This document shows positions 19,108 through 41,970 of a stretch of DNA of 64,000 nucleotides, one piece after another (the first letter of the stretch is position 1; each line of letters opens with the position of its first letter). The stretch spans positions 65,999 to 129,998 of the forward strand of contig CAVYBU010000019.1 in the NCBI GenBank assembly GCA_963766735.1, in the 5' to 3' direction. Position numbers and translations under genes: made by a program. This DNA comes from an uncultured Chloroflexia bacterium. Lineage in GTDB: Bacteria > Chloroflexota > Limnocylindria > Limnocylindrales > CSP1-4. The notes beneath the pieces were generated by a model. That model was not told where the DNA came from. It worked only from the letters and a program-made list of their open reading frames with translations, and made no database searches.

Positions 19108-19152
19108 GGCCACGAGCCCACGATCCCCTGTCTCGGAGGAGGAGCCCCAGCG

Positions 19153-20948: not shown

Positions 20949-20960
20949 GAGGAGCAGGAC

Positions 20961-22463: not shown

Positions 22464-22487
22464 CTGAAGGACTGGGAGGAGACACCG

Positions 22488-24908
22488 ATGCAGTCAACAG
22501 CACGGGTCGTCATCATCGGCGGCGGCGTCATGGGGATCGGGCTGCTCCACAGCCTGGCCCTCGAGGGGTGGACCGACACCATCCTGATCGAGAAGGGTGA
22601 GCTGACGTCGGGCTCGACCTGGCACGCCGCGGGCCAGTGCCCCAGCTTCATCGCCGACTACAACCTGGCCAAGGTCCATGCGTACAGCAACGACCTGTAC
22701 GCGCGGCTGGAGGCGGAGACCGGCGTGGCCACGGGCTGGCACGCGACCGGGGGCATCCGGTTCGCGACCAACCAGCTCGAGCTCGACCACTTCAAGCGGG
22801 TCGAGGGCGTGGCCGCCAACATCGGGTTCCGGATGCAGGTCATCAGCCCCGAGGAGATCCGCCGGATCAACCCGTTCGTGACGACCGAGGGCGTCCTGGC
22901 CGGAGCCTGGACGCTGGACGACGGCTACGTGGACCCGTCCAGCTCGTGCAACGCGATGGCAACCGCCGCCAAGCGGCTGGGCGGCACGATCGTGCGCCAC
23001 AACCGGGTGCTCGGGATCGAGCAGCTGCCGAGCGGCGACTTCCGGGTCTCCACCGAGCAGGGCGACATCACCTGCGAGCACGTGGTCAACGCCGCGGGCT
23101 GCTACGCGGACCGGGTGAGCGCGTGGCTCGGCGTCCAGACCCGGTTCGCCAACATGAAGCACCAGTACGTCGTCACGGGGCCCGTCAAGGAGTTCGAGGA
23201 GAGCGACGTCGAGATGCCCGTGATGCGGGATCCGTATTGCTCCTCGTACTACCGTCAGGAACAGACGTCGGGCCTGATCGGCATCTACGAGAACAGCGAC
23301 ACCGAGGAGGCCTGGAAGGAGCAGGGCGGCCCCGCGTGGGATTCCGAGAACGAGCTGTTCCCGGCCCAGCTCGACCGCCTGATGCCATTCCTCGAGCGGG
23401 TCATGGATCGGATGCCGATCTTCGCGGAGGCGGGCATCAAGAAGGTGGTGAACGGCGCCATCTCGCACACGCCGGACAGCAACCCGCTCGTGGGACCCGC
23501 CCCCGGCGTCCGCAACTTCTGGCTGGCGACCGGCACCGGCATCGGGATCGCCCAGGGCCCCGGCTGCGGCAAGTACCTCGCGCAGATGATGGTTCACGGT
23601 GATGCCGAGATCAACATGCTGGGCATGGATCCGCGCCGCTACGGCGCCTTCGCCGACCAGGCGTACGTGTCCGCCAAGGCCCACCGCGAGTACCGGGACA
23701 TGTACCGGCTGATCCCGCCCGGCGAGGAGCGCCCCGAGGGCCGGCCTGCCAAGGCCACGCCGCTGTACGACACGCTCCTCGCCAAGGGCTGCGTGTTCAC
23801 CGAGGCCTTCGGCTGGGAGCGGCCCAAGTGGTTCTCCGCCGACGGGGCCGAGGAGGACGGGACGTTCCGCCGCACCAACGCCCATCCGGTGGTGGCCGCC
23901 GAGTGCCATGCCGTGCGTGAGCGTGTCGGAATCATGGAGCTCCCCGGCTTCACGAGGCTCGAGGTCTCCGGAGCGGACGCCGAGGCGTTCCTGAACCGCG
24001 TCTGCGCCAACCGGATGCCGAAGCGGGACGGCGGGATCGTCCTCGCCCATGCCCTCTCCGATCAGGGCCGGTTCATCACCGAGCTCACGATCACGCGTCT
24101 GGCCGCGGACCGCTTCATGCTCCTCTCGGGCGCGGCGGCCTATCACCGCGACGAGGATCTGCTCCGCAGGGCGATCCGCGAGGGCGAGGCCGTCTCGATC
24201 GACAACGTCACGGCCGACTGGACGACGCTGATCGTGGCCGGGCCGCGAACCCGCGACGTGCTGGCCGGGCTCACACCGGCGGACCTGTCGTCCGCGGCCT
24301 TCCCGTGGCTGACCGCGCAGGAGATCACGGTCGCCGGGAGGGGGGTGCGTGCGCTGCGCGTCAACTACGTCGGCGAGCTGGGCTGGGAGCTCCACTGCCG
24401 CATGGCGGACGTGGTTGCCGTCTACGAGGCCGTCTGGAAGGCCGGCGAGCCGTTCGGGATCGCCGACTTCGGCCTGTATGCGATGAACAGCCTGCGGCTG
24501 GAGAAGTCCTACGCGGGTCTGGGTTCCGAGCTCACCAACGAGATCACGCCGGTCGAGGCCAACATGCTGCGCTTCGTCAAGCTGGACCACGAGTTCCGCG
24601 GAAAGGCAGCCGTCGAGAAGGTGCTCGCCAAGGGCGCCACCACCCACCTCGTGACCGTCAAGGTGGACGCGGTGGACTTCGACATCGCGGGCGGCGAGCC
24701 GGTGTTCGCCGGCGATCGCGTGGTGGGCGTGACGACGTCGGGCGGCCACGGCCACGCGACGGGGCTCTCGCTGGGCTTCGCGTACGTGGACAGCGGGTTC
24801 GACGCTGCGGGCACCAAGCTCGAGATCATGCTCCTGGGCGACCGCCGCGCCGCCGAGGTGATCCCGTCGTCTGTGTACGACCCGTCCAACGCGCGGTTGC
24901 GAGCCTGA
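22488..24908 (+). CDS. FAD-dependent GcvT-domain oxidoreductase (dimethylglycine dehydrogenase-like), copy 3
   Basis: IIGGGVMG, SGSTWHAAG, GWERP, TELTI and NYVGELGWELH. Confidence 0.92.
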   Translation: MQSTARVVIIGGGVMGIGLLHSLALEGWTDTILIEKGELTSGSTWHAAGQCPSFIADYNLAKVHAYSNDLYARLEAETGVATGWHATGGIRFATNQLELDHFKRVEGVAANIGFRMQVISPEEIRRINPFVTTEGVLAGAWTLDDGYVDPSSSCNAMATAAKRLGGTIVRHNRVLGIEQLPSGDFRVSTEQGDITCEHVVNAAGCYADRVSAWLGVQTRFANMKHQYVVTGPVKEFEESDVEMPVMRDPYCSSYYRQEQTSGLIGIYENSDTEEAWKEQGGPAWDSENELFPAQLDRLMPFLERVMDRMPIFAEAGIKKVVNGAISHTPDSNPLVGPAPGVRNFWLATGTGIGIAQGPGCGKYLAQMMVHGDAEINMLGMDPRRYGAFADQAYVSAKAHREYRDMYRLIPPGEERPEGRPAKATPLYDTLLAKGCVFTEAFGWERPKWFSADGAEEDGTFRRTNAHPVVAAECHAVRERVGIMELPGFTRLEVSGADAEAFLNRVCANRMPKRDGGIVLAHALSDQGRFITELTITRLAADRFMLLSGAAAYHRDEDLLRRAIREGEAVSIDNVTADWTTLIVAGPRTRDVLAGLTPADLSSAAFPWLTAQEITVAGRGVRALRVNYVGELGWELHCRMADVVAVYEAVWKAGEPFGIADFGLYAMNSLRLEKSYAGLGSELTNEITPVEANMLRFVKLDHEFRGKAAVEKVLAKGATTHLVTVKVDAVDFDIAGGEPVFAGDRVVGVTTSGGHGHATGLSLGFAYVDSGFDAAGTKLEIMLLGDRRAAEVIPSSVYDPSNARLRA

Positions 24909-24972: not shown

Positions 24973-25707
24973 CTACTCGCCGAAGGGTCGCCGCTCCACG
25001 GCCGCCATCGCGAAACTGATCAGGGTCGTGATGTCGAACACTGGCAGGCCAGTCGCCTGCTGGACCGCGTGGGCGTACGGCGGGAGGTCCGTGCACTCGA
25101 ACAGGATCGCCCCGATGTCGCCCTCCGTCCGGACGATGTCCATCGCCGCGGCAACAACCTCAGCCTCGATGGCGTCGAAGTCCAGCGTGCCGACCTGGTC
25201 GTGGATCGCCGCCTTGAAGGCGGGGCCGTGCTCGAGGCCGCGGACCGCGATGTCAACCGGGATGCCACGGGTGGCGATCTCCAGGTGGCGCGGCGTCAGC
25301 GACTGCCCCGAGGCCGTGAGCACCCCTATCCGCTGCCCCGGCCGGAGCGCGGCCGCGATCCACGGAAGCTGTAGCAGGCTCGACATGAAGACCGGTACCG
25401 GCAGCTCGGCCGCCAACTGGTCCTGGAAGAAGATCATGAAGCCGCAGTTGCCCGTCACCGCCCGCACGCCCTGCCGGACGAGCTGGCGCCCGGCCTCGAG
25501 GAACCGCGCCGCCAGCTCGGGCTTCGGGTTGTAGATGAGGTTCTCCATGTCGGCGCCGCGGACCACCGAGTACAGCACCGGGTGGTCGAACGTCCGGGCA
25601 TTGCCGGGGGTGCCGGGCGGGTACGGGATGTAGTCGTCCATGACGATCACGCCGAGCGGGAACCCGCTGACGTCCTGCCCCCGCCCGACGGTGTAGATCC
25701 TGCTCAT
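24973..25707 (-). CDS. Aspartate/glutamate racemase superfamily protein
   Basis: Two-cysteine pattern GNCGF and ECTDLPPY, plus PGTPGNARTF and PVFD. Confidence 0.8.
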   Translation of the reverse strand: MSRIYTVGRGQDVSGFPLGVIVMDDYIPYPPGTPGNARTFDHPVLYSVVRGADMENLIYNPKPELAARFLEAGRQLVRQGVRAVTGNCGFMIFFQDQLAAELPVPVFMSSLLQLPWIAAALRPGQRIGVLTASGQSLTPRHLEIATRGIPVDIAVRGLEHGPAFKAAIHDQVGTLDFDAIEAEVVAAAMDIVRTEGDIGAILFECTDLPPYAHAVQQATGLPVFDITTLISFAMAAVERRPFGE

Positions 25708-25716
25708 GGCGCGACC

Positions 25717-27174
25717 TCAGGGGTTCGTGAGCCGGCGGATGCCGACGTTCTTGGACTGGGTGTAGCTCTCGAGCGACTCCAGGCCCTTCTCCCGACCGAG
25801 GCCGGACCGCTTGAAGCCGCCGAACGGCGTCTCGACGCCGCCCACGCCCCACTCGTTGACGTGGACCTGGCCCGCGTCGAGGCGCTCGGCGCACCACAGG
25901 GCCCGGTCGAGGTCCGCCGTGAACACGCCAGCCGCTAGGCCGTAGTCCGTGCCGTTGGCGATCTCCACCGCCTCGGCGGCCGTGGAGAACCGCAGGATCG
26001 TGAGCACCGGGCCGAAGACCTCGGACTGGTTGAGCTCCATCTCGGGCGACACGTCGGCGGCGACGGTCGGCGCCATGTAGTTGCCAGGCAGCTCGGCGCA
26101 GCGTGCGCCACCGGTGGTGATCCGTGCGCCGTACGCCTTCGCACGGAGGGCGAAACCCTCGACCGTGTCCAGGTGCTCGGCCGAGATGAGCGGCGTGATC
26201 TGGGCGTCGTCGATGCCGGGGCCAACCGTGAACTCCGCCACGAGGGTCGTGGCGCGCTCCACGACCTCGTCATAGGCCGCGTCCTCCACGATCAGGCGCG
26301 TCATCGAGTCGCAGACCTGGCCGGAGTTCTCGAACAGACCGCCGACGATGCTGGCCTCCAGGTTCTCCATGTCCGCGTCCGCGAAGACGATGCCTGCCGA
26401 CTTGCCGCCCAGCTCCAGGATCACGGGCACGGCCCGCTCCGCTGCGGCGTGCATGATCGAGCGGCCGACCTCCGTCGAGCCCGTGAACACGATGTGGTCG
26501 ATGTCCCGGTGGGAGACCAGGGCGGCGCCCGCCTCGGAGCCGGCGCCGGACACGATGTTGAGGACGCCCTCGGGTAGGCCTGCCTCCAGCGCGGCGGCCG
26601 CGAAGATGAACGCCGACAGCGGGTCCAGCGACGGCGTCTTGACCACCGCGGCGTTGCCGGCGGCAAGCGCCGGCGAGAGCGATCGCGCCACCATGCCCGC
26701 CGGGTAGTTCCACGGGATGACGTGAGCGGTCACACCGTGAGGCACGGGCACCACGAAGTCCATGTACCCGTCTCCGAGCGGGATGTACCTGCCTTCCAGC
26801 GCCGCAGCCAGGCCGCCGTAGTACTCGAGGTACCGGGCCGAGCCTTCGATCTCGGCCAGGCCCTCAGAGATCCGCTTGCCACAGTCGAGGGTGAGCTGGC
26901 GGGCGTAGTGCTCCTTGCGCGATCGCAGGATGCGGCTCATCTCGTTCAGGACGCGTCCTCGCGCGAGCGGCCGCATGCCGGACCACGTTCGAGCCCGGAC
27001 AGCGGCACGAGCCGCGGCGACGGCGCGGTCAACATCGGCGGCCGACGCGCGCGCCACCTCCGCGATGGGCGTCCTGGTGGCCGGGTCGCTGGTCACCATG
27101 CGCCGGCCATCGGCGGCATCCACCCAGGCGCCGCCGATGAAGTTCCTGGTGTACGGAAGGTCGGTCGTGGTCAT
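25717..27174 (-). CDS. NAD(P)-dependent aldehyde dehydrogenase
   Basis: IPWNYP, FTGS, LELGGKS (catalytic Glu), NSGQVC (catalytic Cys), EVFGP and PFGGFKRSG. Confidence 0.92.
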   Translation of the reverse strand: MTTTDLPYTRNFIGGAWVDAADGRRMVTSDPATRTPIAEVARASAADVDRAVAAARAAVRARTWSGMRPLARGRVLNEMSRILRSRKEHYARQLTLDCGKRISEGLAEIEGSARYLEYYGGLAAALEGRYIPLGDGYMDFVVPVPHGVTAHVIPWNYPAGMVARSLSPALAAGNAAVVKTPSLDPLSAFIFAAAALEAGLPEGVLNIVSGAGSEAGAALVSHRDIDHIVFTGSTEVGRSIMHAAAERAVPVILELGGKSAGIVFADADMENLEASIVGGLFENSGQVCDSMTRLIVEDAAYDEVVERATTLVAEFTVGPGIDDAQITPLISAEHLDTVEGFALRAKAYGARITTGGARCAELPGNYMAPTVAADVSPEMELNQSEVFGPVLTILRFSTAAEAVEIANGTDYGLAAGVFTADLDRALWCAERLDAGQVHVNEWGVGGVETPFGGFKRSGLGREKGLESLESYTQSKNVGIRRLTNP

Positions 27175-27196
27175 GGCGGGTCCTCCGGTCGTCAGG

Positions 27197-29632
27197 TTAT
27201 TGATTGGACGGGGTGGCGTAGGGGTTCGGCAGCCAGCGCTCGACGACGGCGGGCAAGCGGTCGCCGAGGGCGGTGAGGGTCACGGCGTCGCCGGGCTCGA
27301 TGTCGAGGTCGAGGTAGCCCAGCACGACACCGAACCCGGATGAGGTGTCCGTGCCTGCCGAGGTGGCGACGCCGATGATACGGCCGGCAGCATCCCGGAT
27401 CGGCTGGTTGGCGGCGAGAGGGAACGGCGGGGCGGCATCCAGGAGGACCGACGCGAGCCGGCGGCGGGTCGGGCTGGCCGGGTCGCCTGCCTTGCGGAGG
27501 CCTGCCGGCCACGGCTCGTCACCCCGGCGCTCGCAGCCGTCGGCGACGAGCAGGGTGTCGCTGTCGAGCTCCCGTCCCCACGCTGGCGTTCGGAGCTCGA
27601 GGCGCATCGCCTCAAGGGATCGCGCGCCGATCAGCGTCAGGCCGTCAGCGGCGGCAGCCACCTCGAGGTACACGTGGCGCAGGAACTCCGACGCGGTGTG
27701 CAGCTCCCACGCCGGCTGCCCGAAGGCGTCGGTGCGGACGGCAAGCACCGGCGCGTAGTTCACGAGGACGTGGTGCGCCGCGCCGACCGGGAACCGCCGC
27801 TCATCGAACTCGACCGGTTCCAGGTCGCGGATGTCGGACCGCGACAGGCCCCGCAGGATCGCCGGCGCCGAGGGCCCGGACAGGAGCAGGCAGCCCTCGT
27901 GTCCCGTGAGGTCCTCCAGGCGCACGTCGGAGCGACCGCCCGTGGCGCGCTCGATCAGGTCGCGACAGAGGCGCTCCGAGCCGGCCGCGGAGCTGACGAT
28001 GAACCGGTCGTCCGCATCGGCCTGGATGCCGACCACGAGGCCGACGGTCTCGCGCCCGGTCGGGACCCACGCGCTTGCGGCGTGGCCGGCCTCGGGGACG
28101 GCCGGCCGCACCAGAAGCTCAAGGACTGGCCGCGCGCCGGGGCCTGTCACCTCGATACGGGCGCCGTGGGACAGGTCCGCCGCGGCAAGGCTGCCGCGGA
28201 TTGCGGCGCACTCCCGGGCTACCTGATCGCCCCACGACTGCTCTCGGAAGCCGTACCGCTCTGCCGCCTCGGCGCCCGCAGGGGCGAACCAGTTGGGGCG
28301 CTCCCAGCCGTGCACCTCGCCGAACACGGCGCCGCGCGCCGCCAGGAGGTCGTGGATCGGCGTCGTCTTGAGCGGGCGACCGGCGGCCAGCTCCTCGTCG
28401 GGAAGGGGCACCTGGTAGGTCCGCTCGTTGGCCTCCTCGGTCTTGCGGGCGCTCCACGTGCGGGTGGCGTGGGATCCGAACCTGCGCGGGTCGAGCGCGC
28501 CCATATCGATCGAGGGCTCGCCCTCCGTGATCCAGGTGGCCAGCTGCCAGCCGATGCCTCCTGCCAGCGTGATGCCGTTGGGAGTCCCCTCGGCCTGCCA
28601 GAAGTTGCGACGGCCTGGCACGGGCCCGACCATCGGGAGGTCGTCGGGCGAGTACGGCATGGGTCCGTTGACGATGCTCCGGATCTCGAGATTCTCGAGC
28701 GAGGGCACGCGCTCGGCGGCCGCGACCGCGTATGGCAGGAGGGCGTCCACGTCTGGCCCGAGCAGCGCCCGGACGAAATTGCGTGGCACGCCGTTCATGA
28801 ACACGGACTCGCCGCGCCCGCCAAAGAACCCGAGCACCACCCCGTCCACCTCGGGGCGGACGTAGAACAGCTGCTCGGGGTCGCGCATTACGGGCATCTC
28901 GGGCAGTCCGAGACGGCGGCGCTCGGCGAAGGCGGGGATGGGGCCGCTGACGAGGAACTGGTGCCGGAGCGAGACCACCTGCGACGGCAGGCCGACCATG
29001 CCGAGGACCTCCGCGCTCTGGTTGCCGCTGCACGAGACGACATGCTCGCAGTCGATGTCGCCGGCGCTCGTGTGGACGCGCCAGCCGCCGGGGTGCTCCG
29101 TGAAACCCGTCACCTCCGTGTGCTGGAGGATCGTGGCGCCCAGCTGGCGCGCGCCGGCCGCGAGCGCCATTGTGAGTTCCGTCGGGTCGGCGTGGCCGTC
29201 CTCTGGCGTGAGCAGACCGCCCAGGAGCCCGGTCGTGTCAACGAGGGGCCATACGTCCTTGACGCCGTCGGCGTCGAGGAGCTCGGCACGGATGCCCAGC
29301 GTCTCGGCCAGCCCGATGAACCGGCGGTACTCGTCGAGCCGGCCGGGGGCAGTGGCCAGGCGCAGGTTCCCCACCTGGTGGAAACCCGACGGCTGCCCCG
29401 TTCGCCGTTCGAGATCGGCCCAGAGGCGGCAGCTGTACTCGTTCAGCCGACAGTTGGCGGGGTTGAGCCCGTACGCGATGACGTGTCCCGCCGCGTGCCA
29501 CGTGGACCCGGAGGTCAGCTGGTCCTTCTCGCACAGAACCGTGTCCGTCCAGCCCCGCTCGGCCAGGTGGTACAGGACGCTCGTGCCGACGACGCCGCCG
29601 CCGACCACCACGACCCGTGCGCTCGTGACCAT
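27197..29632 (-). CDS. FAD-dependent GcvT-domain oxidoreductase, copy 4, with a strongly divergent C-terminal folate domain
   Basis: ATG 29632 after SD GGAGG. VVGGGVVG, SGSTWHAAG and GWERPNWF are present, but the C-terminal GcvT motifs are degenerate (TDAFGQPAWELH). Confidence 0.85.
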   Translation of the reverse strand: MVTSARVVVVGGGVVGTSVLYHLAERGWTDTVLCEKDQLTSGSTWHAAGHVIAYGLNPANCRLNEYSCRLWADLERRTGQPSGFHQVGNLRLATAPGRLDEYRRFIGLAETLGIRAELLDADGVKDVWPLVDTTGLLGGLLTPEDGHADPTELTMALAAGARQLGATILQHTEVTGFTEHPGGWRVHTSAGDIDCEHVVSCSGNQSAEVLGMVGLPSQVVSLRHQFLVSGPIPAFAERRRLGLPEMPVMRDPEQLFYVRPEVDGVVLGFFGGRGESVFMNGVPRNFVRALLGPDVDALLPYAVAAAERVPSLENLEIRSIVNGPMPYSPDDLPMVGPVPGRRNFWQAEGTPNGITLAGGIGWQLATWITEGEPSIDMGALDPRRFGSHATRTWSARKTEEANERTYQVPLPDEELAAGRPLKTTPIHDLLAARGAVFGEVHGWERPNWFAPAGAEAAERYGFREQSWGDQVARECAAIRGSLAAADLSHGARIEVTGPGARPVLELLVRPAVPEAGHAASAWVPTGRETVGLVVGIQADADDRFIVSSAAGSERLCRDLIERATGGRSDVRLEDLTGHEGCLLLSGPSAPAILRGLSRSDIRDLEPVEFDERRFPVGAAHHVLVNYAPVLAVRTDAFGQPAWELHTASEFLRHVYLEVAAAADGLTLIGARSLEAMRLELRTPAWGRELDSDTLLVADGCERRGDEPWPAGLRKAGDPASPTRRRLASVLLDAAPPFPLAANQPIRDAAGRIIGVATSAGTDTSSGFGVVLGYLDLDIEPGDAVTLTALGDRLPAVVERWLPNPYATPSNQ

Positions 29633-29633
29633 G

Positions 29634-31076
29634 TCATTTGCCTCCTGTGGCCGCGGGCAGGCGGCTCGCGATCTCGTGGGGGCCTCGGGCAGCTGGTGCG
29701 TCCGGCGCCATGAGGGGCAGGCGTCGCGTGATGTCCGCCACCCGGCCCTCGCGAACGGAGCGGAGAGTTGCGAGCAGCCCTGCGCCCATCGGTGGGTCGC
29801 CGCCGGCATCGACAAGGCGCGAGAACTTGTCGTCCACCTGGCGGCTGTCGAGCGGATCGTGCATCGACCCGAGCTGGCCGTGGATCTCGCGCTCGATCTC
29901 GCGGCCGTCGGACAGGCCCATCCGGACGCGGCCGCCCATCTTCCACGCGTAGGTAGCGTCGAACTCCGGCGCCGGCGTGACCGAGCGCACGCGCGCCTGC
30001 ATCGCGGCGAGGCGCGGGTCGGCAATCCGCTCCGGAGCGTAGGTCGCCGGATCGCGTGGGTCGGCCAGCAGCGCAGCCGCGATGTTGAACTGCGCGGAGT
30101 ACTGCGCCGCCATCACCGAGGTCGTCCCGTCCAGGTTGTTCTGGACAGCGGCCTTGGTGGGCCCCTCGGCCTCGATCCAGACGACCTGCTCCGGGTCCAG
30201 TCGATGGATCTCGCGGAGCTCCATCGCCGCCTGGATCATGGGATGGATGTCGCTGCAGGCGGCATAGGGCTTGGTTGTGATCTCGTCGATCATCCAGCGC
30301 GAGCCAAGACCGGCGGTGAGCAGGTCCACCTGCGGCTGATCGGTGAACACGCGGCAGAACCCGTACCTGCCCGCGAGACCGTCCTCCGCACCCTCGATAC
30401 CACGCGCTGCGAGCAGGGCGGCCAGCAGCCCGCCCTCGGCCGCCCGACCGGCATGCAGGCGCTTCGCCATCCCGCCCGATGCGGCGAACTCCATGGTGCC
30501 GGAGGCCATGGATGCCGCGAGGCCGAAGGCGTGGTTCAGCCGGGCGCCATCGAACCCTAGGAGGCGCCCGGCAGCCGCGGCGGCGCCGAACACCCCTGAC
30601 ATCGAGGTGGGATGGAAGCCGCGCAGCATGTGGGACGCCGGGCCCACCGCGATGCCGGCCCGCCCCATGGCCTCGTAGCCGATCACCACGGCCTCGAGCA
30701 GGTCGCGCCCCGGGGCGCCGGTCTCCTCGGCGAGCGCGAGCGCCACCGGCACGACCACGGCGCCCGGGTGGCTGATGGCCTCCTCGTGCACGTCGTCGAG
30801 CTCGAACGCGTGCGCGGCCGCCCCGTTGGCGAGGGCGGCCATGGGCGCCGAGCGAGAGGCTCCGACGCCCACGAGCGTGGACGCACCGTCGGCTCCGGTT
30901 GCCAGGGCATGGGCCGCGACCGCCCGCGACCACGGCTGCCGCGCCCCATGGATGATCACACCGACGGTGTCCACGAGGCGATCCACCGCCAGTCCAACGA
31001 GGCGCTCGTCAACACGGCCCGAGAGCCCGGCCAGGAAGTCCGCGAGCGCCCGCGAGGCGGGCGGCGAGCCGGTCAC
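29634..31076 (-). CDS. MmgE/PrpD family protein
   Basis: HAFELDDVH, SHPG, GFHPTS, KRLHAG and KPYAACSDIH. Confidence 0.88.
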   Translation of the reverse strand: MTGSPPASRALADFLAGLSGRVDERLVGLAVDRLVDTVGVIIHGARQPWSRAVAAHALATGADGASTLVGVGASRSAPMAALANGAAAHAFELDDVHEEAISHPGAVVVPVALALAEETGAPGRDLLEAVVIGYEAMGRAGIAVGPASHMLRGFHPTSMSGVFGAAAAAGRLLGFDGARLNHAFGLAASMASGTMEFAASGGMAKRLHAGRAAEGGLLAALLAARGIEGAEDGLAGRYGFCRVFTDQPQVDLLTAGLGSRWMIDEITTKPYAACSDIHPMIQAAMELREIHRLDPEQVVWIEAEGPTKAAVQNNLDGTTSVMAAQYSAQFNIAAALLADPRDPATYAPERIADPRLAAMQARVRSVTPAPEFDATYAWKMGGRVRMGLSDGREIEREIHGQLGSMHDPLDSRQVDDKFSRLVDAGGDPPMGAGLLATLRSVREGRVADITRRLPLMAPDAPAARGPHEIASRLPAATGGK

Positions 31077-32185
31077 GGGAGGTCGGCGAGCGCGGCGACC
31101 AGGCGGTCCATGTGCACCGGGAGATTCACGTCGGATCGGAGGTAGCGGTCCGCGAGCCCGCGGAAGCTGACCGAACCGTCCTTGACGATCACCCCCCGCT
31201 CGAGCAGGCCGTTGAACACCTTCGTGGAGTCCGTGCCCGGATCCAGGATCCGGACCAGGAAGAAGTTCGAGCGGCTGCCCGGGATCATCTCGAACCGGTC
31301 GAGGGTCCGGAAGCGCTCGGCCACGTAGGCACGGCCCGCCACGATCGCCTGCACGGTCCGCTCCACGTGGGCGTCATCGTCGAGCGCGGCAACGCCACCC
31401 GCGATCTGGAGCTGGCCCAGGTTCCACGTCGGCTTCACCGCCAGCAAGGCGCGGATGACCGGGACAGGTGCGACGCCGAAGCCGATCCGCAGGCCGGCCA
31501 GGCCGAAAGCCTTGGAGAACGTGCGCAGGACGATGAGGTTCTCGTACTCGCCCGCGAGGTGGATGTAGCCGGGTGTCTCGCTGTAGTGGACGTACGCCTC
31601 GTCCAGGACAACAAGGGCGTTGGGCGCGGCCTCCACCACTCGCCGCACATCGGCCTCCTCCAGCCACGTACCCGACGGACTGTGCGGGTTGGTGAGGAAC
31701 ACGATCTGGGTCGTGGGCTTGATCGCAGCGATGTACGCGTCAAGGTCGATGGCCATCGTCGCCGGGTTGGTCGCACGGTGTGACAGGACCACGTTGCGGC
31801 CTTCGGCCTCGGCGAACAGGTGGTAGATCGGGAAGCACGGCGCGGGCATCAGCACCTCGCCGCCCGACTGCGAGAACGCCCGGATGAGGAGCGAGATCAC
31901 CTCGGTCTCGCCCGACCCGCACACGACGTGGTCCGGCGAGTAGCCGTACAAGGCGGCGATCTTCTCGCGCAGAGGCTGGGCGGTCCATGACGGGTAGAGG
32001 TGGAGCCTGCCCATGGCGCCGTTCACGGCCTCGACCGCCCTGGGGGACGCGCCGAACGGGTTCTCGGCCGACCCCAGCTTGGAGATCTGGGAGGGGTCGA
32101 TCCCGTAGCGCGCCGCGACGTAGTCGGCCGGCAGGCCGGCGACGTAGTACTCGGGATCGGCGAGTCCGGGGTGGGCGTACTGCAT
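31073..32185 (-). CDS. HisC-like PLP-dependent aminotransferase (class I/II)
   Basis: ATG 32185 after SD AAGGAG. AENPFG, DEAY and RTFSKAFGLAGLR (PLP Lys); NPHSPSG replaces the canonical NPNNPTG. Confidence 0.88.
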   Translation of the reverse strand: MQYAHPGLADPEYYVAGLPADYVAARYGIDPSQISKLGSAENPFGASPRAVEAVNGAMGRLHLYPSWTAQPLREKIAALYGYSPDHVVCGSGETEVISLLIRAFSQSGGEVLMPAPCFPIYHLFAEAEGRNVVLSHRATNPATMAIDLDAYIAAIKPTTQIVFLTNPHSPSGTWLEEADVRRVVEAAPNALVVLDEAYVHYSETPGYIHLAGEYENLIVLRTFSKAFGLAGLRIGFGVAPVPVIRALLAVKPTWNLGQLQIAGGVAALDDDAHVERTVQAIVAGRAYVAERFRTLDRFEMIPGSRSNFFLVRILDPGTDSTKVFNGLLERGVIVKDGSVSFRGLADRYLRSDVNLPVHMDRLVAALADLP

Positions 32186-32217
32186 CGGGGTCTCCTTCGG
32201 GCCGCGCCGGGTGCCGG

Positions 32218-33126
32218 TCAGCCGGGGTTGCCGGTGTAGATGCCGGCTGCGCGCCGGGTGGCGTGGAACCGGTCGATCGCGCCCGCGACATCCCCCTCGG
32301 ACCGGGCGAACATGAAGGCGAGGAGCGTCTCGAGGAGCGCGGTGGTGGCGACGTTCGACGACCACGGCAGCGGCGAATCGGTGGGGACCACGAACGCGTG
32401 GGCAGCGAGCGGGATGAGCGGCGACGCGTGGGTGTTGGTGACTGCGATGATCGGGACGCCCCGCGCTGCGGCCAGCCGGACGGCCTCAACGATCTCCACC
32501 CGGAAGGGACTGAAGGTGATGGCGACCAGCGCGTCCTGCTCGGTCATCCGTCCCACATCGTCGATCGCGAGGCCGATCGTCGGGATTGCCATGACGTTGT
32601 CGAGCGCCATCCCGGCGACATAGGCGAAGTTCTCGGCAAGCGGCTTGGAAGTCCCCACGCCTAGGACATACGCGTGGAGGGCCCGGTTGACCAGGTCCGC
32701 GGCAGCGCACAGCGACGCCGTGGATACCCCCGAGAACATCGTCTCGAGGTTCGCGAGCGCCGCGCCGGCCATCCCGGCAAGCACCGCGCCGTGGCTGGTC
32801 CCCTGTCCAAGTCCCTGGAGGAACCGCGCGCGGTCGGGAAACGAGACGGCCCCCTCCGCGGCGTGGGCGCGGAACGGCGTTCGGAACTCCTCGTACCCTG
32901 GGAACCCGACGGCCCGGGCCATCCGCACCAGTGTGTTCGGCTTCACGCCCGCCGTGTCGGCCACGGTACGCATCGACGAGACGGCGATCTTGCGGGGGTT
33001 CTCGAGGACGTACGTGGCCGCCTGGCGGACCTGGGGCGGAAGCTCGCCCAGAGTCGCGGACAGCAGCCGAAGGATCGCCTCCGGATTGGAGGGCAGCGCG
33101 GTCGGGGTGCCCATGTCCTGCCCCAT
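32218..33126 (-). CDS. RpiR/MurR family transcriptional regulator (HTH plus SIS domain)
   Basis: YVLENP, AGVKPNTLVRMARAVGFPGY HTH and a SIS domain (ITFSPF, AVTN); SD GGAGG. Confidence 0.9.
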   Translation of the reverse strand: MGQDMGTPTALPSNPEAILRLLSATLGELPPQVRQAATYVLENPRKIAVSSMRTVADTAGVKPNTLVRMARAVGFPGYEEFRTPFRAHAAEGAVSFPDRARFLQGLGQGTSHGAVLAGMAGAALANLETMFSGVSTASLCAAADLVNRALHAYVLGVGTSKPLAENFAYVAGMALDNVMAIPTIGLAIDDVGRMTEQDALVAITFSPFRVEIVEAVRLAAARGVPIIAVTNTHASPLIPLAAHAFVVPTDSPLPWSSNVATTALLETLLAFMFARSEGDVAGAIDRFHATRRAAGIYTGNPG

Positions 33127-33179
33127 CCGCGTTCACCTCCGTCCTCCGCGGGCCGAGCGGCACCGTCGTGCGGAATACA

Positions 33180-33228
33180 GTTCAAATGTACCATGCTGTT
33201 GTCAAGAGCGGTACATATGTCCTACGCT
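33180..33228. promoter_or_regulatory. Divergent promoter region with two candidate RpiR boxes
   Basis: GTTCAAATGTAC (33180-33191) and GTACATATGTCC (33211-33222); plus-strand TTGTCA-N18-TACGCT. Confidence 0.5.
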
Positions 33229-33285
33229 AGTCGCACCGCAGCAGCTCGGGCTGCCCGGCCGCCGCTGAACCGAGGAGTCGCATCG

Positions 33286-35769
33286 ATGACGGACGAGTCG
33301 CCCACCCGGGCAGGCAGCGGCGACGGCCGCCCGTCCGCCGCGCGGGTCGTCGTCATCGGCGGCGGTATCGTCGGCGCCAGCGTCGCCTTCCACCTGACCG
33401 AGCGCGGCTGGAACGACGTCGTCCTCGTCGAGCGGCGAAAGCTCACCAGCGGCACAACCTGGCATGCGGCCGGTCTCGTGGGCCAGCTGCGCGCGTCGCA
33501 CAGCATGACGGCGTTCGCGAGCTACTCGAAGGAGCTGTTCCGCGAGCTCGAGCGACGGACCGGCGACAGCACCGGGTTCGTGCAGCACGGCTCGGTCCTG
33601 GTCGCGCACACGGAGGGGCGCTGGGACGAGATCCGCCGCAACGTGTCCATGGCGACCACCGCGGGGATCGAAATGGAGCTCATCACGGCCGGGCGCCTGG
33701 GCGAGATGTGGCCGCTCATGAGCACCGACGGCGTGCTCGGCGCCGCGTTCATCCCCAAGGACGGGATGGCCAATCCCGTGGACGTCACCCTCGCCCTGGC
33801 CCGGGCGGCGAGGCTGGGCGGCGCCCGCGTGCTCGAGAACACGACCGTGACGCGGATCCTGCGCCGCGAGGGCCGGGTCTCGGGCGTGGAGACCGACCAG
33901 GGGACGATCGCCTGCGAGTACGTCGTCAACTGCACCGGCATGTGGGCGCGCGAACTGGGCGCCCGGGACGACGTGGCGATCCCTCTCCACGCGGCCGAGC
34001 ACTTCTACCTCGTCACGGAGCCGATCGAAGCACTTGCGCCGGACCTGCCGGTACTGCGGATGCCCGACGACGGCACCTACGCGCGCAACGAGGCCGGCAA
34101 GCTGATGGTGGGCTTCTTCGAGCCGGGCGCGAAGCCCTGGGCGACCGAGGGGATCCCGGCCGACGCGGAGTTCCTGACGCTGCCGGCGGACTGGGACCAC
34201 CTCGAGCCGTACATCCTCAAGGCCGTCAACCGGATTCCCGTGTTCGGCGAGAAGGGCATCCAGCTGTTCTTCAACGGCCCCGAGGCCTTCACGCCGGACG
34301 GCCGCTACATCCTGGGCGAAGCCCCGCAGCTTGGCGGCTACTTCGTCGCCGCCGGGTTCAACTCCAGCGGCTTCGCGACCGGCGGCGGCGCCGGCCGCGC
34401 GGTCGCGGACTGGCTGGTTGACGACCGCCCGCCGATCGACCTCTGGGAGGTGGACATCCGGCGGTTCATGCCGTTCCAGCGCAACCGCCGGTACCTCTAT
34501 GAGAGGACGACCGAGACGGTGGGGATCGTCTACGCGACCCACTGGCCGTTCAAGCAGATGACGACCGCCCGCGGCATCCGCCGCTCACCGCTCCATGACC
34601 GGCTCGTCGCCCGCAACGCGTGCTTCGGGGAAGTCGGTGGCTGGGAGCGGGCGAACTGGTATGCGCCGGCCGGGGTCGCTCCCGAATACGAGTACAGCTA
34701 CGGGCGCCAGAACTGGTTCCCCTACTCCGCGGAGGAGCACCAGGCCGTCCGCGAGAACGTGGCGCTGTTCGATCAGACCAGCTTCGGCAAGCTCCAGGTG
34801 GCCGGACGCGACGCCGCCCGCGCTCTGAACCGGATCTGCACGGCCGACATCGACTTCGAACCGGGCCGCATCGCCTACACGCAGTGGCTCAACGAGTACG
34901 GCGGCGTCGAGGCGGATGTCACCGTCTCCCGCCTGGCCGAGGACCGGTTCCTGGTCATCACCACCGGCACCCAGACCCAGCGAGACCTCGACTGGCTGCG
35001 CAAGCACATCGACACCGACGCCCACGTGCTGCTGACCGACGTGACGTCGGCCGAGACCGTGATCTCGATCATGGGTCCGCGCTCGCGTGACCTCCTGCGG
35101 TCGATGTCCGACGCCGACCTGTCCAACGCCGCGTTCCCGTTCGGGACCGTGCGCGAGATCGACCTCGGCTACGCGTTCGCCCGCGCTGCCCGCACCACCT
35201 ACGTGGGCGAGCTTGGCTGGGAGCTGTACCTCCCGACCGAGTTCGCGACCCACGTCTATGACGCCATCGTGGAGGCGGGTGAGTCATTCGGTCTCCGCCA
35301 CGCGGGCTATCACGCGCTCAACAGCCTGCGGATCGAGAAGGCGTACCGCCACTGGGGCCATGACATGGCGGACCGCGACACGCTCATCGAGGCCGGCCTC
35401 GCGTTCACGGCCGCCTGGGACAAGCCAGGCGGCTTCATCGGCCGCGACGCGCTCCTGCGCCAGCGGACGGCGGGCGTCCCCGGCCGGCGCCTGGCCGTGT
35501 TCGTCCTCGACGACCCGGGGCCGCTGATGTACCACAACGAGCCCATCCTGCGGGACGGCGAGCTGGTCGGCTGGATCACCTCGGCGATGTTCGGCCACAC
35601 GATCGGCCGATCCATCGGCCTGGGCTATGTCAAGCGCGGCGACGGGCCGGTCACGCCCGACTGGCTGGCCGCCGGCCGCTACGAACTCGAGATCGCCTGC
35701 GAGCGGTACGGCGCTTCAGCCTCGCTCAAGGCTCCCTACGACCCGTCACACGCCCGCATCCGCGCCTGA
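33286..35769 (+). CDS. FAD-dependent GcvT-domain oxidoreductase, copy 5 (close paralog of copy 2)
   Basis: ATG 33286 after SD AGGAG. SGTTWHAAG, NGPEAFTPD, ADVTV and TYVGELGWELY. Confidence 0.92.
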   Translation: MTDESPTRAGSGDGRPSAARVVVIGGGIVGASVAFHLTERGWNDVVLVERRKLTSGTTWHAAGLVGQLRASHSMTAFASYSKELFRELERRTGDSTGFVQHGSVLVAHTEGRWDEIRRNVSMATTAGIEMELITAGRLGEMWPLMSTDGVLGAAFIPKDGMANPVDVTLALARAARLGGARVLENTTVTRILRREGRVSGVETDQGTIACEYVVNCTGMWARELGARDDVAIPLHAAEHFYLVTEPIEALAPDLPVLRMPDDGTYARNEAGKLMVGFFEPGAKPWATEGIPADAEFLTLPADWDHLEPYILKAVNRIPVFGEKGIQLFFNGPEAFTPDGRYILGEAPQLGGYFVAAGFNSSGFATGGGAGRAVADWLVDDRPPIDLWEVDIRRFMPFQRNRRYLYERTTETVGIVYATHWPFKQMTTARGIRRSPLHDRLVARNACFGEVGGWERANWYAPAGVAPEYEYSYGRQNWFPYSAEEHQAVRENVALFDQTSFGKLQVAGRDAARALNRICTADIDFEPGRIAYTQWLNEYGGVEADVTVSRLAEDRFLVITTGTQTQRDLDWLRKHIDTDAHVLLTDVTSAETVISIMGPRSRDLLRSMSDADLSNAAFPFGTVREIDLGYAFARAARTTYVGELGWELYLPTEFATHVYDAIVEAGESFGLRHAGYHALNSLRIEKAYRHWGHDMADRDTLIEAGLAFTAAWDKPGGFIGRDALLRQRTAGVPGRRLAVFVLDDPGPLMYHNEPILRDGELVGWITSAMFGHTIGRSIGLGYVKRGDGPVTPDWLAAGRYELEIACERYGASASLKAPYDPSHARIRA

Positions 35770-35811
35770 CCCACCCGCAACCGCCCAGTCCGTCGGAGCA
35801 AGGAGAGTCAC

Positions 35812-37344
35812 ATGGGAACTGCACACCCGGTCCACCAGCCGCCGGTCCCGGACGCCGCGTCGCCCGTCTGGCCGGGCCTTCCCAGCGGACGCTTCATGCC
35901 CATGACGCCGGACGAGCTGGCCCGCATGCACCAGGGCGTTCTCGACATCATGGAGCAGGTCGGCTTCGGGGATCCGACGCCCCGCCTGATCGAGGTCGTG
36001 GGCTCCAGGGGCGGCTGGGTGGACGAGCACGGAAGGCTGCGCTTTCCCCGCACCCTCGTCGAGGACGTGATCGCCAACGCCCCGCACACGCTGGTCCTGC
36101 CGGGGCGGGACCCGCGCCATGACTTCGAGGTTGGTGAGGGGCGACTCCACACCGGTACCGGCGGGGCATCGCCCAACATCGTGGACTTCGCCACGGGCGG
36201 CTACCGCCCGGCCTCGGTCGCCGACCTCTACGACGTCGCCCGGCTTGTCGACCGGATGGAGAACATCCACTTCTTCTGGCGACCGATCGCCGCCGCGGAC
36301 ATCGCCGAGGCTTCCGTCCTTGACATCAACACCGCGTACGCCTGCCTGCAGGGCACGACGAAGCACTTCACGGCCAGCTTCGTCAACGGCGACTCGGTAC
36401 GCGCAGCCGTCAGGATGTTCGACATGGTCCTGGGCGGCGAGGGCCGGTTCCGCGAGCGCCCGTTCTGCTCGGCTTCCTGCTGCCACGTCGTTCCGCCGCT
36501 GCGGTTCGCCGCCAATTCGTGCGAGGCTCTCGAGGCGGCGGTCATGGCGGGCATGCCAGTCGGCGTGGTATCGGCGGGCCAGACCGGCAGCACCAGCCCC
36601 GTGACGCTCGCCGCGATGATCGCCCAGACGGCGGCGGAGTGTCTCGCGGGACTCGTCTTCGCCTACCTGCTCGACCCCAACTGCCGCGTCCACCTCTCGG
36701 CCTTTCCGTTCGTCTCGGATCTGCGGACCGGTGCCAGCTCCGCCGGCGCGGCCGAACAGGGGCTCCTGGCATCGGGCTTCGCCCAGCTGACGCACTTCTG
36801 GCGACTTCCGGCGAGCATCGCGGCGGGCATGACCGACTCGAAGGAGCCCGATGTGCAGGCCGGCGCCGAGAAGGCCCTCTCGCTCGCGCTGACGGCCAAC
36901 GCCGGTGCGTCGATGATCCTCGAATCGGCCGGCATGCAGGCGAGCCTGATGGGTGTCTCGCTCGAGGCGTTTGTGCTCGACAATGAGATGCTCGCCGCCG
37001 TGCAGCGCACGGTCCGGGGCATCGAGGTCAACGAGGACACGCTGTCGGTCGAGGAGATCCGCAGCGCTGTCCTCGAGGACGGCCACTATCTCGGCCGGAC
37101 CGAGACCAGGGCGCGCATGCGTCGCGATTTCGTGTACCCGACCGTGGGCAATCGGGACGCGCCATCAGTCTGGGAGGAGGGGGGCCGAGTCCAGGTGCGC
37201 GAGCAAGCTCGCGCTCGGGTGCGGGCAATCCTGGCCGAGCACTACCCGGGGAACGTCGATCCGGTGGTGGACGAGCAGATCCGGGCACTGTGGGACATCC
37301 GCCTGCCGCGCGAGTTCATGACCCCCGCGTCCGGCCGCTGGTAG
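35812..37344 (+). CDS. MttB family methyltransferase without pyrrolysine, copy 2
   Basis: GSTSPVTLA, DLRTG and AAGMTDSKEPDVQAGAEK; paralog of 20961-22463. Confidence 0.9.
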   Translation: MGTAHPVHQPPVPDAASPVWPGLPSGRFMPMTPDELARMHQGVLDIMEQVGFGDPTPRLIEVVGSRGGWVDEHGRLRFPRTLVEDVIANAPHTLVLPGRDPRHDFEVGEGRLHTGTGGASPNIVDFATGGYRPASVADLYDVARLVDRMENIHFFWRPIAAADIAEASVLDINTAYACLQGTTKHFTASFVNGDSVRAAVRMFDMVLGGEGRFRERPFCSASCCHVVPPLRFAANSCEALEAAVMAGMPVGVVSAGQTGSTSPVTLAAMIAQTAAECLAGLVFAYLLDPNCRVHLSAFPFVSDLRTGASSAGAAEQGLLASGFAQLTHFWRLPASIAAGMTDSKEPDVQAGAEKALSLALTANAGASMILESAGMQASLMGVSLEAFVLDNEMLAAVQRTVRGIEVNEDTLSVEEIRSAVLEDGHYLGRTETRARMRRDFVYPTVGNRDAPSVWEEGGRVQVREQARARVRAILAEHYPGNVDPVVDEQIRALWDIRLPREFMTPASGRW

Positions 37345-39187: not shown

Positions 39188-39189
39188 CT

Positions 39190-41695: not shown

Positions 41696-41876
41696 CGATG
41701 CTGCTCCTGTTTGGTGGCTGATATCGCCGGCCATCGTGCGCCGGCCGGTCCCTCCTCGGGGCCGTCCCGGCGGGTCACGACTCGACGCGCGGACGAGCCG
41801 TTGAACCCCGGGGTGCGGGTGCCGCCGGTGCGCGACAAGCAGGGGACCGGCCGTCGCGCACGACCTGATTGGCGGG

Positions 41877-41915
41877 ATGCTAACTGTTGACAATAGCCCT
41901 GTCAACGGCCATTCT
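41877..41915. promoter_or_regulatory. Overlapping divergent promoters built on the palindrome GTTGACA-N7-TGTCAAC (candidate GntR operator)
   Basis: Plus strand: TTGACA(41887)-N17-CATTCT(41910). Minus strand: TTGACA(41905)-N17-TAGCAT(41882-41877). Confidence 0.65.
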
Positions 41916-41970
41916 TGTGGTCCGAACGATGCTTCCGGGTGCCCCATCGGCCCCGGTTGACGGAGGGCCG

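Follow-up and report, generated by a model that had tools for sequence, protein, structure and literature searches.

The 64,000-nucleotide stretch of DNA considered here, the window (positions 65,999 to 129,998 of contig CAVYBU010000019.1, assembly GCA_963766735.1), comes from an uncultured Chloroflexia bacterium, has a G+C content of about 70% throughout and contains a tightly packed six-gene operon on the minus strand that opens with a gene for an RpiR-family regulator. The five genes that follow encode a HisC-like enzyme dependent on pyridoxal phosphate (PLP), referred to below as AT, a MmgE/PrpD-family enzyme (the PrpD-like protein), a flavoenzyme resembling dimethylglycine dehydrogenase (DMGDH), an aldehyde dehydrogenase (ALDH) and a member of the Asp/Glu racemase superfamily. 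Divergent from the operon lie genes for a second DMGDH-like flavoenzyme and for a methyltransferase of the MttB superfamily. Domains were assigned with Pfam, and the start and stop codons of the six operon genes were checked. The features of the locus are as follows:

24973-25707, minus strand: Asp/Glu-racemase-superfamily protein, 244 amino acids (PF01177, 40 bits; NF005679 subfamily)
25717-27174, minus strand: NAD(P)-dependent aldehyde dehydrogenase, ALDH, 485 amino acids (Pfam Aldedh, E 4e-154)
27197-29632, minus strand: DMGDH-like flavoenzyme DMGDH_C, 811 amino acids (Pfam DAO, FAO_M and a divergent GCV_T)
29634-31076, minus strand: MmgE/PrpD-family enzyme, 480 amino acids (Pfam MmgE_PrpD_N and MmgE_PrpD_C)
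31073-32185, minus strand: HisC-like PLP enzyme, AT, 370 amino acids (Pfam Aminotran_1_2, E 5.5e-52)
32218-33126, minus strand: RpiR-family regulator, first gene of the operon (Pfam HTH_6 and SIS, both above cutoff; ATG start, TGA stop)
33187-33215, no strand: candidate RpiR operator, inverted repeat TGTACC-N17-GGTACA, in the divergent region between rpiR and the DMGDH_D gene
33286-35769, plus strand: DMGDH-like flavoenzyme DMGDH_D, 827 amino acids (Pfam DAO, FAO_M, GCV_T and GCV_T_C)
35812-37344, plus strand: MttB2, a non-pyrrolysine methyltransferase of the MttB superfamily, 510 amino acids (Pfam MTTB, E 6.7e-105)
37460-38422, minus strand: electron transfer flavoprotein (ETF) alpha (Pfam ETF and ETF_alpha)
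38423-39187, minus strand: ETF beta (Pfam ETF; its start, MKILVC, maps to 39187)

Counted from the racemase gene, the operon genes are separated by 9, 22 and 1 bp, overlap by 4 bp and are then separated by 32 bp, and rpiR and the DMGDH_D-mttB2 pair are transcribed divergently across a 160-bp region. An original prediction, made from the letters of the sequence, had described such an operon, and the Pfam domains and the start and stop codons bear it out. The same prediction had placed a divergent gcvT-mttB pair opposite the operon and a further divergent GcvT within it; the divergence of the pair stands, but the GcvT label does not, as both genes encode full DMGDH-type fusions (DAO, FAO_M and GCV_T) and not plain T-proteins.

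With the PrpD-like protein as the query and one genome per species, we found 104 relatives and kept the best 80, which are the 80 loci referred to throughout. Gene presence was scored by tblastn; many of these loci are incomplete, so that the partner counts are lower bounds. Most relatives derive from metagenome-assembled genomes (MAGs) of Acidimicrobiia from seawater and sponges, and of the roughly one hundred species that carry the gene set, the majority are uncultured Acidimicrobiia from the sea or associated with sponges. The AT gene lies beside the PrpD-like gene in 73 of the 80 loci, so that the gene set, read earlier as a catabolic pathway, is indeed a conserved unit, and in five of the seven exceptions the PrpD-like gene is at a contig edge. 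A Rieske oxygenase gene lies between the two in 64 loci; a divergent DMGDH-like gene is found in 57, an RpiR orthologue (48-95% identity) in 35, a gene resembling arylmalonate decarboxylase (AMDase) in 29 and an M24-family gene in 23, and the racemase-like gene is confined to the window and one other locus, L001. This last locus, from a second MAG, repeats the operon order at 96-98% identity and has 16 window genes in the same order. A Chloroflexi MAG (L002) carries rpiR-AT-PrpD-DMGDH_C-ALDH at 75-86% identity (80% for the PrpD-like protein) among unrelated flanking genes. The gene arrangement is more than chance.

Within its own phylum the PrpD-like protein is rare: among 401 sampled Chloroflexota genomes, orthologues (E up to 1e-80) were detected in two, the source genome, where it is the single MmgE/PrpD gene, and one other of the same genus. 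This rarity, together with 70-75% identity to Acidimicrobiia proteins, suggests lateral transfer. A search of plasmids with the PrpD-like protein returned two records only (36-38% identity), and a search of the ESM Atlas only generic MmgE/PrpD clusters.

The core pair of AT and PrpD-like genes is joined by three alternative partner sets. In the source genome (set A), these are the divergent MttB2 and DMGDH_D together with DMGDH_C, ALDH and the racemase-like protein. In Acidimicrobiia (set B), the usual gene order is M24-rpiR-AT-Rieske-PrpD, with DMGDH, AMDase-like, sulfotransferase-like and FrhB-like genes on the opposite side. Set C comprises nine Rieske-free marine loci in which AT-PrpD, often preceded by a gene for a 2-oxoglutarate-Fe(II) oxygenase, is followed by an F420-type LLM oxidoreductase, a CN_hydrolase of the N-carbamoyl-amidase type and a dihydropyrimidinase (549 bits on TIGR02033, cutoff 393). 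L011 and L018 show this order directly, L008 and L009 have all these genes inside 10 kb, L006 has PrpD-LLM-CN_hydrolase up to the contig end, and L020 has CN_hydrolase-AT-PrpD and a gene of the 3-hydroxyisobutyrate-dehydrogenase type. Altogether, AT-PrpD stands beside dihydropyrimidinase and/or CN_hydrolase in six of the nine Rieske-free loci; the end product of the set C route is beta-alanine or beta-aminoisobutyrate, an indication that AT acts on a beta-amino acid.

No Rieske gene was found in the window. The Rieske protein of set B is closest to the carnitine oxygenase CntA, which it matches over the full length (E 2.4e-55), and far closer to it than to the demethylase Stc2. As described in the portion of PMC7948474 that deals with this residue, an aromatic residue at CntA position 203, in pi-cation contact with the quaternary ammonium, marks group Va, whereas demethylases (group Vb) have Asn. 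All 61 set B sequences have Tyr203, with Glu205, His208, His213 and Asp323, and the cluster and Fe ligands are invariant. Of the carnitine contacts of CntA, Tyr295 is replaced by Arg (61/61), Asn270 by Gln, Tyr225 by Ser or Thr, Tyr315 by Asp or Glu and Phe319 by Thr; the invariant Arg for Tyr295 and the Gln for Asn270 are consistent with a shorter carboxylate substrate. In 23 loci the M24 gene stands between the operator and rpiR; by far the best NCBIfam model for its product is that of DddP, a lyase of dimethylsulfoniopropionate (DMSP), matched over the full length with 262 bits.

The original prediction had named an amino-acid betaine or N-alkyl amino acid as the substrate, and the partner genes of the other lineages, which attack quaternary or N-methyl ammonium groups, favour this class. 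Its more specific suggestion of hercynine or an aromatic betaine is not borne out, for we found nothing specific to imidazole or aryl groups and the contexts speak for an amino acid with a small skeleton, beta-amino or acidic. Such a skeleton is suggested by the pyrimidine catabolic genes, the DddP-like M24 protein and the CntA-like pocket with its invariant Arg.

Several observations on the partner genes stand apart from this comparison. In the AMDase-like protein (L044, 4465-5292, minus strand, and 28 other loci) Cys occupies the first catalytic position and Gly the second; AMDase itself has the reverse placing, with Gly first and Cys second. The AMDase-like protein and the racemase-like protein of the window have no BLAST similarity to each other. 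At L016, on an Acidimicrobiales chromosome, a divergent enolase-superfamily (MR/MLE) gene is present. On a plasmid of the cultured roseobacter Leisingera sp. NJS201 (L084, NZ_CP038237.1, 47-58 kb), genes for ALDH, hydantoinase/oxoprolinase A (HyuA) and B (HyuB), a HisC-like protein and an Asp/Glu racemase face genes for MttB, MmgE/PrpD and a LysR regulator. The families are the same, but identity to the window proteins is only 23-38%, and we regard this cluster as an analogue and not as an orthologue.

The replacement of NPNNPTG by NPHSPSG in AT, to which the original prediction had drawn attention, is located at residues 166-172 and recurs in 70 of 72 AT sequences. In aminotransferase subfamily I-beta (histidinol-phosphate aminotransferase, HspAT, and aromatic aminotransferase, ArAT), the Asn-Pro of NPNNPTG is strictly conserved (Asn157 of mArAT), and in HspAT the equivalent Asn helps to hold the substrate phosphate, according to the sections of PMC4703992 concerned with these residues. 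In AT this subfamily-invariant Asn is replaced by Ser (Ser-Pro), again in 70 of 72 sequences, and the lid Tyr, which in HspAT hydrogen-bonds the imidazole, is represented by Phe (ENPFG). Alignment to solved HisC structures shows that AT keeps the Schiff-base Lys (FSKAF), the Arg that binds the PLP phosphate (GLRIG), DEAY and the C-terminal anion-binding Arg (YLRSD), all invariant across the AT alignment. AT is probably an aminotransferase for the demethylated amine. A beta-amino acid, like histidinol phosphate, has no carboxylate on the amine-bearing carbon, and this could explain the changed Asn. A role of AT in histidine biosynthesis was considered and rejected on its score on the HisC model TIGR01141 (267.2-267.5 bits, below the cutoff of 276.55), on NPHSPSG and on a separate HisC-family gene on contig C7 of the source genome, to which AT is 28% identical. 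The earlier observation that no his genes lie nearby is correct within about 25 kb; a gene of PF00977 (HisA/HisF family) is located at 58547-59257.

The PrpD-like protein scores 202.8 and 81.3 bits on PF03972 and PF19305, against a cutoff of 32.1, and no NCBIfam model matched it at E 1e-10. Its nearest solved relative is iminodisuccinate (IDS) epimerase (2hp0, E 1.6e-45, 159 bits), with the structures of cis-aconitate decarboxylase (CAD/IRG1) ranking behind at E of about 1e-27. Ten residues, D94, D95, H103, H149, H155, K205, H208, K269, C274 and H278, do not vary among the 80 PrpD-like sequences. The part of PMC6789909 that compares CAD, IDS epimerase and methylcitrate dehydratase lists their common conserved residues as Asp93, His103, His159, Lys207 and Lys272 of human CAD (hCAD). 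D94, H103, H155, K205 and K269 correspond to this active-site set in all 80 sequences, and the equivalent of hCAD His277 is also kept. The position of IDS-epimerase Tyr145, a residue proposed to be catalytically important, is held by Met in 76 of the 80 sequences, by Leu in three and by Ile in one. The invariance of the family active-site residues argues that the PrpD-like protein is an intact enzyme, with a reaction that we can only predict; judged by its sequence, it is neither PrpD, CAD nor IDS epimerase. The canonical PrpD of the methylcitrate cycle was rejected as a candidate, with no curated model matched and no prpB or prpC neighbours (isocitrate-lyase and citrate-synthase types) in the window.

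The inverted repeat TGTACC-N17-GGTACA occurs once in the window, with no match in any of 100 shuffles, and is the only perfect site in the 3.6-Mb genome, where it lies between rpiR and DMGDH_D-mttB2. We searched the 80 loci for sites with at most two mismatches and a spacing of 16-17. In 29 of the 35 RpiR-bearing loci, from two phyla, an operator-type site lies within 2.2 kb upstream of rpiR, either immediately ahead of rpiR or ahead of the M24 gene in front of it. Of the 45 loci lacking RpiR, 13 have a site anywhere in 753 kb, in scattered places. L012, L015 and L049 each have a second, also perfect, operator copy (at about 660-2700) between a DMGDH-like gene and an amidase gene. Operator copies beside DMGDH genes suggest that DMGDH-type genes belong to the same RpiR regulon. 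Control by RpiR, as originally predicted, thus gains in-silico support from the conserved operator; the repeat, as a predicted operator, supports such control of the operon and is not proof of it. The amidase gene beside the second operator copy matches the PRK08137 model with 685 bits, above cutoff, and may belong to an extended putative RpiR regulon.

The alignment of DMGDH_C with human DMGDH covers the whole protein (E 6e-124), and the flavinylation motif STWHAAG is retained; in Pfam the GCV_T match of DMGDH_C is weak (116 bits) and GCV_T_C is not matched. When columns invariant in the six other DMGDH-like proteins are compared, the folate domain of DMGDH_C departs from 10 of 36 and those of the other DMGDH-like proteins from 1-4 of 23-26; the DAO (FAD) domain of DMGDH_C is ordinary, with 4 of 44 invariant columns changed. 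MttB2 scores 351 bits on PF06253 and 346 bits on TIGR02369, below the cutoff of 525, and is about equally similar to MttB (7xcl) and MtgB (2qne/9yce). In MtgB, glycine betaine is bound by Y97, R312, H348 and F356. A Met of MttB2 aligns with the pyrrolysine position of 7xcl, and there is no in-frame TAG at that position. The best NCBIfam models for ALDH are betaine-aldehyde dehydrogenase (TIGR01804, 434 bits, cutoff 668.6) and aminobutyraldehyde dehydrogenase, all below cutoff, and its nearest PDB entries are ALDH1/2, betaine aldehyde dehydrogenase (BADH) and trimethylaminobutyraldehyde dehydrogenase (TMABADH). ALDH is best described, from these matches, as a generic ALDH1/2/BADH-like enzyme.

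The racemase-like protein scores 273 bits on NF005679, above the cutoff of 231, and shares both catalytic-type cysteines (TGNCGF and ECTDLPPY) with four alphaproteobacterial homologues; a sequence search of solved structures returned nothing at E 0.01. Homologues with 42-46% identity occur in 131 alphaproteobacterial plasmid records, beside DAO-type oxidoreductases and amino-acid transporters. On a Rhizobium plasmid, the homologue accompanies a DMGDH-like gene, ETF and PurU. On a plasmid of Ruegeria sp. SCSIO 43209 (L085), a homologue of 42% identity lies among a TRAP transporter, an FAD oxidoreductase, a TSUP transporter, a D-cysteine-desulfhydrase family protein and RidA. By its likeness to the CuyB/CuyA cysteate system, as outlined in an excerpt of PMC11193023, the Ruegeria cluster looks like a CuyA/CuyB-type cysteate cluster.

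The window is otherwise a methylated-amine island, with an OpuA-type betaine transporter, the choline dehydrogenase BetA (829 bits, above cutoff), a second MttB-DMGDH-ETF set and a Liv-type ABC transporter. The second set runs from a TetR/BetI regulator through DMGDH_A, ETF beta, ETF alpha and MttB1 to DMGDH_B (15687-24908, plus strand), is probably a second demethylation operon, for glycine betaine, and ends, convergent, 65 bp from the racemase gene. DMGDH_A (16597-19107) is 76% identical to DMGDH_D and MttB1 is 60% identical to MttB2; DMGDH_C shares only 33-34% with any paralogue. Downstream of MttB2 lie a second ETF pair and a fifth DMGDH-like gene. The ETF genes at 37460-39187 probably encode the electron acceptor of the DMGDH-like enzymes and are putative members of the pathway.

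The source genome (3.6 Mb in 35 contigs) has 14 MTTB-family matches, with MTTB or B12-binding genes on contigs C3, C8, C19, C25 and C31, and at least six B12-binding-domain proteins above cutoff, of which the one closest to the window, at C19:58631, lies some 7 kb ahead of it. A strong MttB match (761 bits) is found at C19:63123-64625, just ahead of the window. The organism looks like a methylated-amine specialist.

Two reading-frame irregularities were seen in the window. An open reading frame (ORF) of 1174 amino acids at 38423-41947 (minus strand) is an apparent DMGDH-ETF beta fusion that results from a one-base frame change at about 39462-39472; in the other frame a normal GCV_T_C end reaches a stop at 39190-39192, followed by the ETF beta start at 39187. 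The apparent fusion is either a pseudogene or an assembly indel. At 6613-9112 (minus strand) a frame change near 7590 divides a sixth DMGDH-like gene, with the DAO part upstream and the GCV_T part called as a separate ORF of 339 amino acids. That two genes of one family are frameshifted suggests that the assembly contains indel errors. Eight kb past the island, at 45775-47178 (minus strand), lies a gene for a family III CoA-transferase (CaiB / succinate-glutarate CoA-transferase-like; 407 bits, below cutoff), and similar genes are present in eight related loci.

The reading that we put first, possible although we would not call it probable, is that the RpiR-controlled operon breaks down an amino acid that is quaternary or N-methylated and has a small skeleton of the beta-amino or acidic kind; the foremost candidate is beta-alanine betaine or a 2-substituted relative. 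Beta-alanine betaine is the nitrogen analogue of DMSP. Action of AT and the PrpD-like protein on a beta-amino acid, derived in sets A and B from beta-alanine betaine or such a relative, would be the simplest common denominator of the quaternary or N-methyl contexts of sets A and B, the Rieske pocket, the partner resembling a DMSP lyase and the context of set C. From these observations we infer the substrate, every reaction, the order of the steps and the regulation by RpiR. The first methyl group would be taken off by MttB2 together with a corrinoid protein whose gene lies elsewhere on the contig; DMGDH_D and DMGDH_C would then oxidise the tertiary and secondary amines and pass the electrons to ETF. 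The primary amine thus freed would be transaminated by AT to a semialdehyde (malonate semialdehyde) or an oxo acid, on which the PrpD-like protein may perform carboxylate-directed chemistry at the alpha proton, most likely decarboxylation of malonate semialdehyde, with epimerisation or isomerisation as an alternative. ALDH would oxidise the resulting aldehyde, and the racemase may handle stereoisomers of substituted analogues.

A related proposition, which we hold to be rather doubtful, is that the HisC-like/PrpD-like pair constitutes a hitherto unrecognised two-enzyme disposal route for beta-amino acids (beta-alanine and beta-aminoisobutyrate) fed by three pathways. Transamination would yield malonate or methylmalonate semialdehyde, which would then undergo a cofactor-free decarboxylation or isomerisation by the PrpD fold. 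The three feeders would be pyrimidine breakdown, Rieske-/DddP-like cleavage of beta-alanine betaine in the Acidimicrobiia of the sea and of sponges, and, in the organism studied here, a cobalamin/flavin demethylation free of trimethylamine.

A number of points weigh against a pathway for beta-alanine betaine. MmgE/PrpD enzymes of known function act, to our knowledge, on di-, tri- and tetracarboxylates, and malonate semialdehyde has a single carboxylate. Beta-alanine has no stereocentre and thus leaves the racemase without a role. MttB2 and DMGDH_D, as close paralogues of MttB1 and DMGDH_A (60% and 76%), may simply be a second glycine-betaine module, and no MttB or second DMGDH gene was found near the five-gene unit of L002, so that the operon need not be tied to the divergent mttB. 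The degenerate folate domain would fit N-dealkylation by DMGDH_C as well as N-demethylation. On the Rieske branch AT is unnecessary, since a group Va oxygenase would release trimethylamine and an aldehyde. Of the partners on which the choice of skeleton draws, the M24 protein scores below the DddP cutoff of 600 and the CN_hydrolase of set C below its curated cutoff; in L008 and L009, a class-III aminotransferase within the pyrimidine genes could serve beta-alanine alone. Finally, L016 (4342-11461) has MttB (713 bits)-Rieske-PrpD with a PrpD orthologue of 69% identity, and no HisC-like gene was found near it.

Some of these points favour a different account, in which the operon is independent of MttB2-DMGDH_D and degrades a secondary amine, namely an N-alkyl or cyclic amino di- or tricarboxylate of the opine, iminodisuccinate or pipecolate type. 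DMGDH_C would cut a C-N bond other than that of an N-methyl group, giving an aldehyde for ALDH, whose gene lies directly downstream of that of DMGDH_C, and a primary amine for AT, and the PrpD-like protein would epimerise the N-substituted amino acid as its nearest solved relative, IDS epimerase, does. The five-gene unit of L002, which does without MttB, fits this account, as do the folate domain of DMGDH_C, degenerate (10/36, no GCV_T_C) beside an intact FAD domain, and the close paralogy of MttB2 and DMGDH_D with the neighbouring putative glycine-betaine set. We nevertheless consider it unlikely, given that the only operator of the genome lies in a region common to the operon and DMGDH_D-mttB2, that the partner in 64 of 80 loci is a Rieske protein of the quaternary-ammonium type with the pi-cation Tyr, that the Tyr145 position of IDS epimerase is Met in 76 of 80 sequences, and that DMGDH partners of the L015 type have normal GCV_T and GCV_T_C domains. 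A substrate such as carnitine or a related gamma-amino-beta-hydroxy acid appears quite unlikely. Here, demethylation would lead to 4-amino-3-hydroxybutyrate, AT to malic semialdehyde and ALDH to D-malate, which the PrpD-like protein would dehydrate or epimerise, with the two-cysteine racemase-like protein acting in the manner of a maleate isomerase. PrpD-type enzymes do dehydrate hydroxy-polycarboxylates, and the racemase-like protein is a two-cysteine protein, as maleate isomerase is. The Rieske partner is closest to CntA; moreover, MttB-family methyltransferases for carnitine and gamma-butyrobetaine exist (PMC13080624, in part), and carnitine breakdown in Acinetobacter baumannii leads to D-malate, which needs a dedicated enzyme (from a section of PMC11353897). 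However, the CntA contacts to the carboxylate and hydroxyl (Tyr225, Asn270, Tyr295, Tyr315 and Phe319) are all replaced, CntA-type cleavage needs no aminotransferase and yet no partner is more constant than AT, the racemase-like protein matches no solved structure at E 0.01, and the pyrimidine-gene context is left unexplained. Nor do we know of HisC-type enzymes that act on terminal amines.

Two further substrates would retain an alpha-amino acid. One, which we judge very unlikely, carries a trimethylammonium group on the side chain, as does N-epsilon-trimethyllysine: the side chain would be demethylated here, or cleaved by the Rieske enzyme in Acidimicrobiia, to give a semialdehyde that ALDH oxidises, and AT would remove the alpha-amino group. 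AT would then be needed on the demethylating and the Rieske branch alike, the Arg and the Asp or Glu of the Rieske pocket could hold the zwitterionic amino-acid end, and ALDH resembles dehydrogenases of aminoaldehydes and of trimethylaminobutyraldehyde (TMABA). Set against this are the lack of a clear role for the PrpD-like enzyme, a pocket in which Arg and Gln suggest a shorter and not a longer substrate, the same unexplained pyrimidine genes, and the absence of lysine or aminoadipate genes from the annotated loci. The other, hercynine or an aromatic amino-acid betaine that is demethylated and then transaminated by the HisC-like enzyme, draws on the membership of AT in the HisC/aromatic aminotransferase subfamily I-beta; with the imidazole-bonding lid Tyr of HspAT changed to Phe (ENPFG), the invariant Asn changed to Ser, no Hut, ergothionase or aryl-catabolic genes in any annotated locus, and partner genes that point to small aliphatic onium compounds, we regard it as extremely improbable. 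Ectoine (Doe/Eut) and creatine readings, raised by the M24, racemase-like, AT and ALDH genes, were rejected, for they fail to explain the MttB, DMGDH and Rieske partners.

Comparison with known systems places the locus among routes for methylated amines, one of which is that for glycine betaine (through dimethylglycine and sarcosine to glycine, by MtgB, MtgC/MtgD, DMGDH/sarcosine dehydrogenase and ETF): here, too, an MttB-superfamily gene adjoins DMGDH-type and ETF genes, with cobalamin-binding proteins encoded in the genome. Aerobic use of MtgBCD is described in the part of PMC12478193 that bears on it. Glycine is the end point of that route, which does without a HisC-like enzyme, a PrpD-like enzyme, an ALDH and a racemase, whereas here these four form a regulated operon and are also found without MttB (in L002, the racemase being restricted to the window and L001). 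The carnitine route of A. baumannii (CntAB, malic semialdehyde dehydrogenase and D-malate dehydrogenase; PMC11353897 and PMC7948474, each in part) resembles the present system in the CntA-like Rieske protein of 64 of the 80 related loci and in having an ALDH for the aldehyde product. It differs in that the carnitine oxygenase operon has no aminotransferase, PrpD-like enzyme or DMGDH, the window has no Rieske gene, and the carnitine contacts of CntA are replaced in the relatives. The Agrobacterium IDS epimerase (PDB 2HP0/2HP3), as the nearest solved relative, has its family residues kept in the PrpD-like protein; yet the match is only 159 bits, Tyr145 is Met, and the partners here are N-demethylation genes and not a C-N lyase.

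The proline-/hydroxyproline-betaine (Hpb) pathway of Paracoccus and Rhodobacter follows a similar logic, with a betaine epimerase, a Rieske demethylase, a flavin-dependent N-methyl demethylase, a semialdehyde and an ALDH. It differs in its enolase-superfamily epimerase, its demethylase of the Old Yellow Enzyme (OYE) type, an imino acid product that cannot be transaminated, and in having no PrpD-like or HisC-like enzyme that we know of. Reductive pyrimidine catabolism (dihydropyrimidinase, beta-ureidopropionase and beta-alanine aminotransferase) resembles six of the nine Rieske-free loci, whereas the window has no pyrimidine genes; described beta-alanine aminotransferases are class-III enzymes, and we know of no PrpD-like step in this route. 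The original prediction did not recognise the gene combination as a described pathway, and we likewise found none in the full-text literature (subscription journals and supplements being outside the scope of the search), where no paper among the matches listed joins MmgE/PrpD with MttB, betaine, carnitine, trimethyllysine, Rieske proteins or quaternary amines.

The operon probably serves to break down a methylated nitrogen osmolyte, by a route for which we found no description, and we place the locus with betaine or N-methyl-amine catabolism, with two enzymes whose reactions we infer. Methylated nitrogen osmolytes are a major carbon, nitrogen and methyl currency in soils, oceans and animal hosts, and the way in which they are broken down decides whether trimethylamine is released. 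The locus supplies definite proteins that can be tested, a predicted operator and a small number of candidate substrates. If the two-enzyme route for beta-amino acids exists, it would give new activities to two large enzyme families and would be the first pathway by which the nitrogen analogue of DMSP is broken down. If the substrate is beta-alanine betaine, the operon would fill a gap beside the well-studied pathways for DMSP and glycine betaine.

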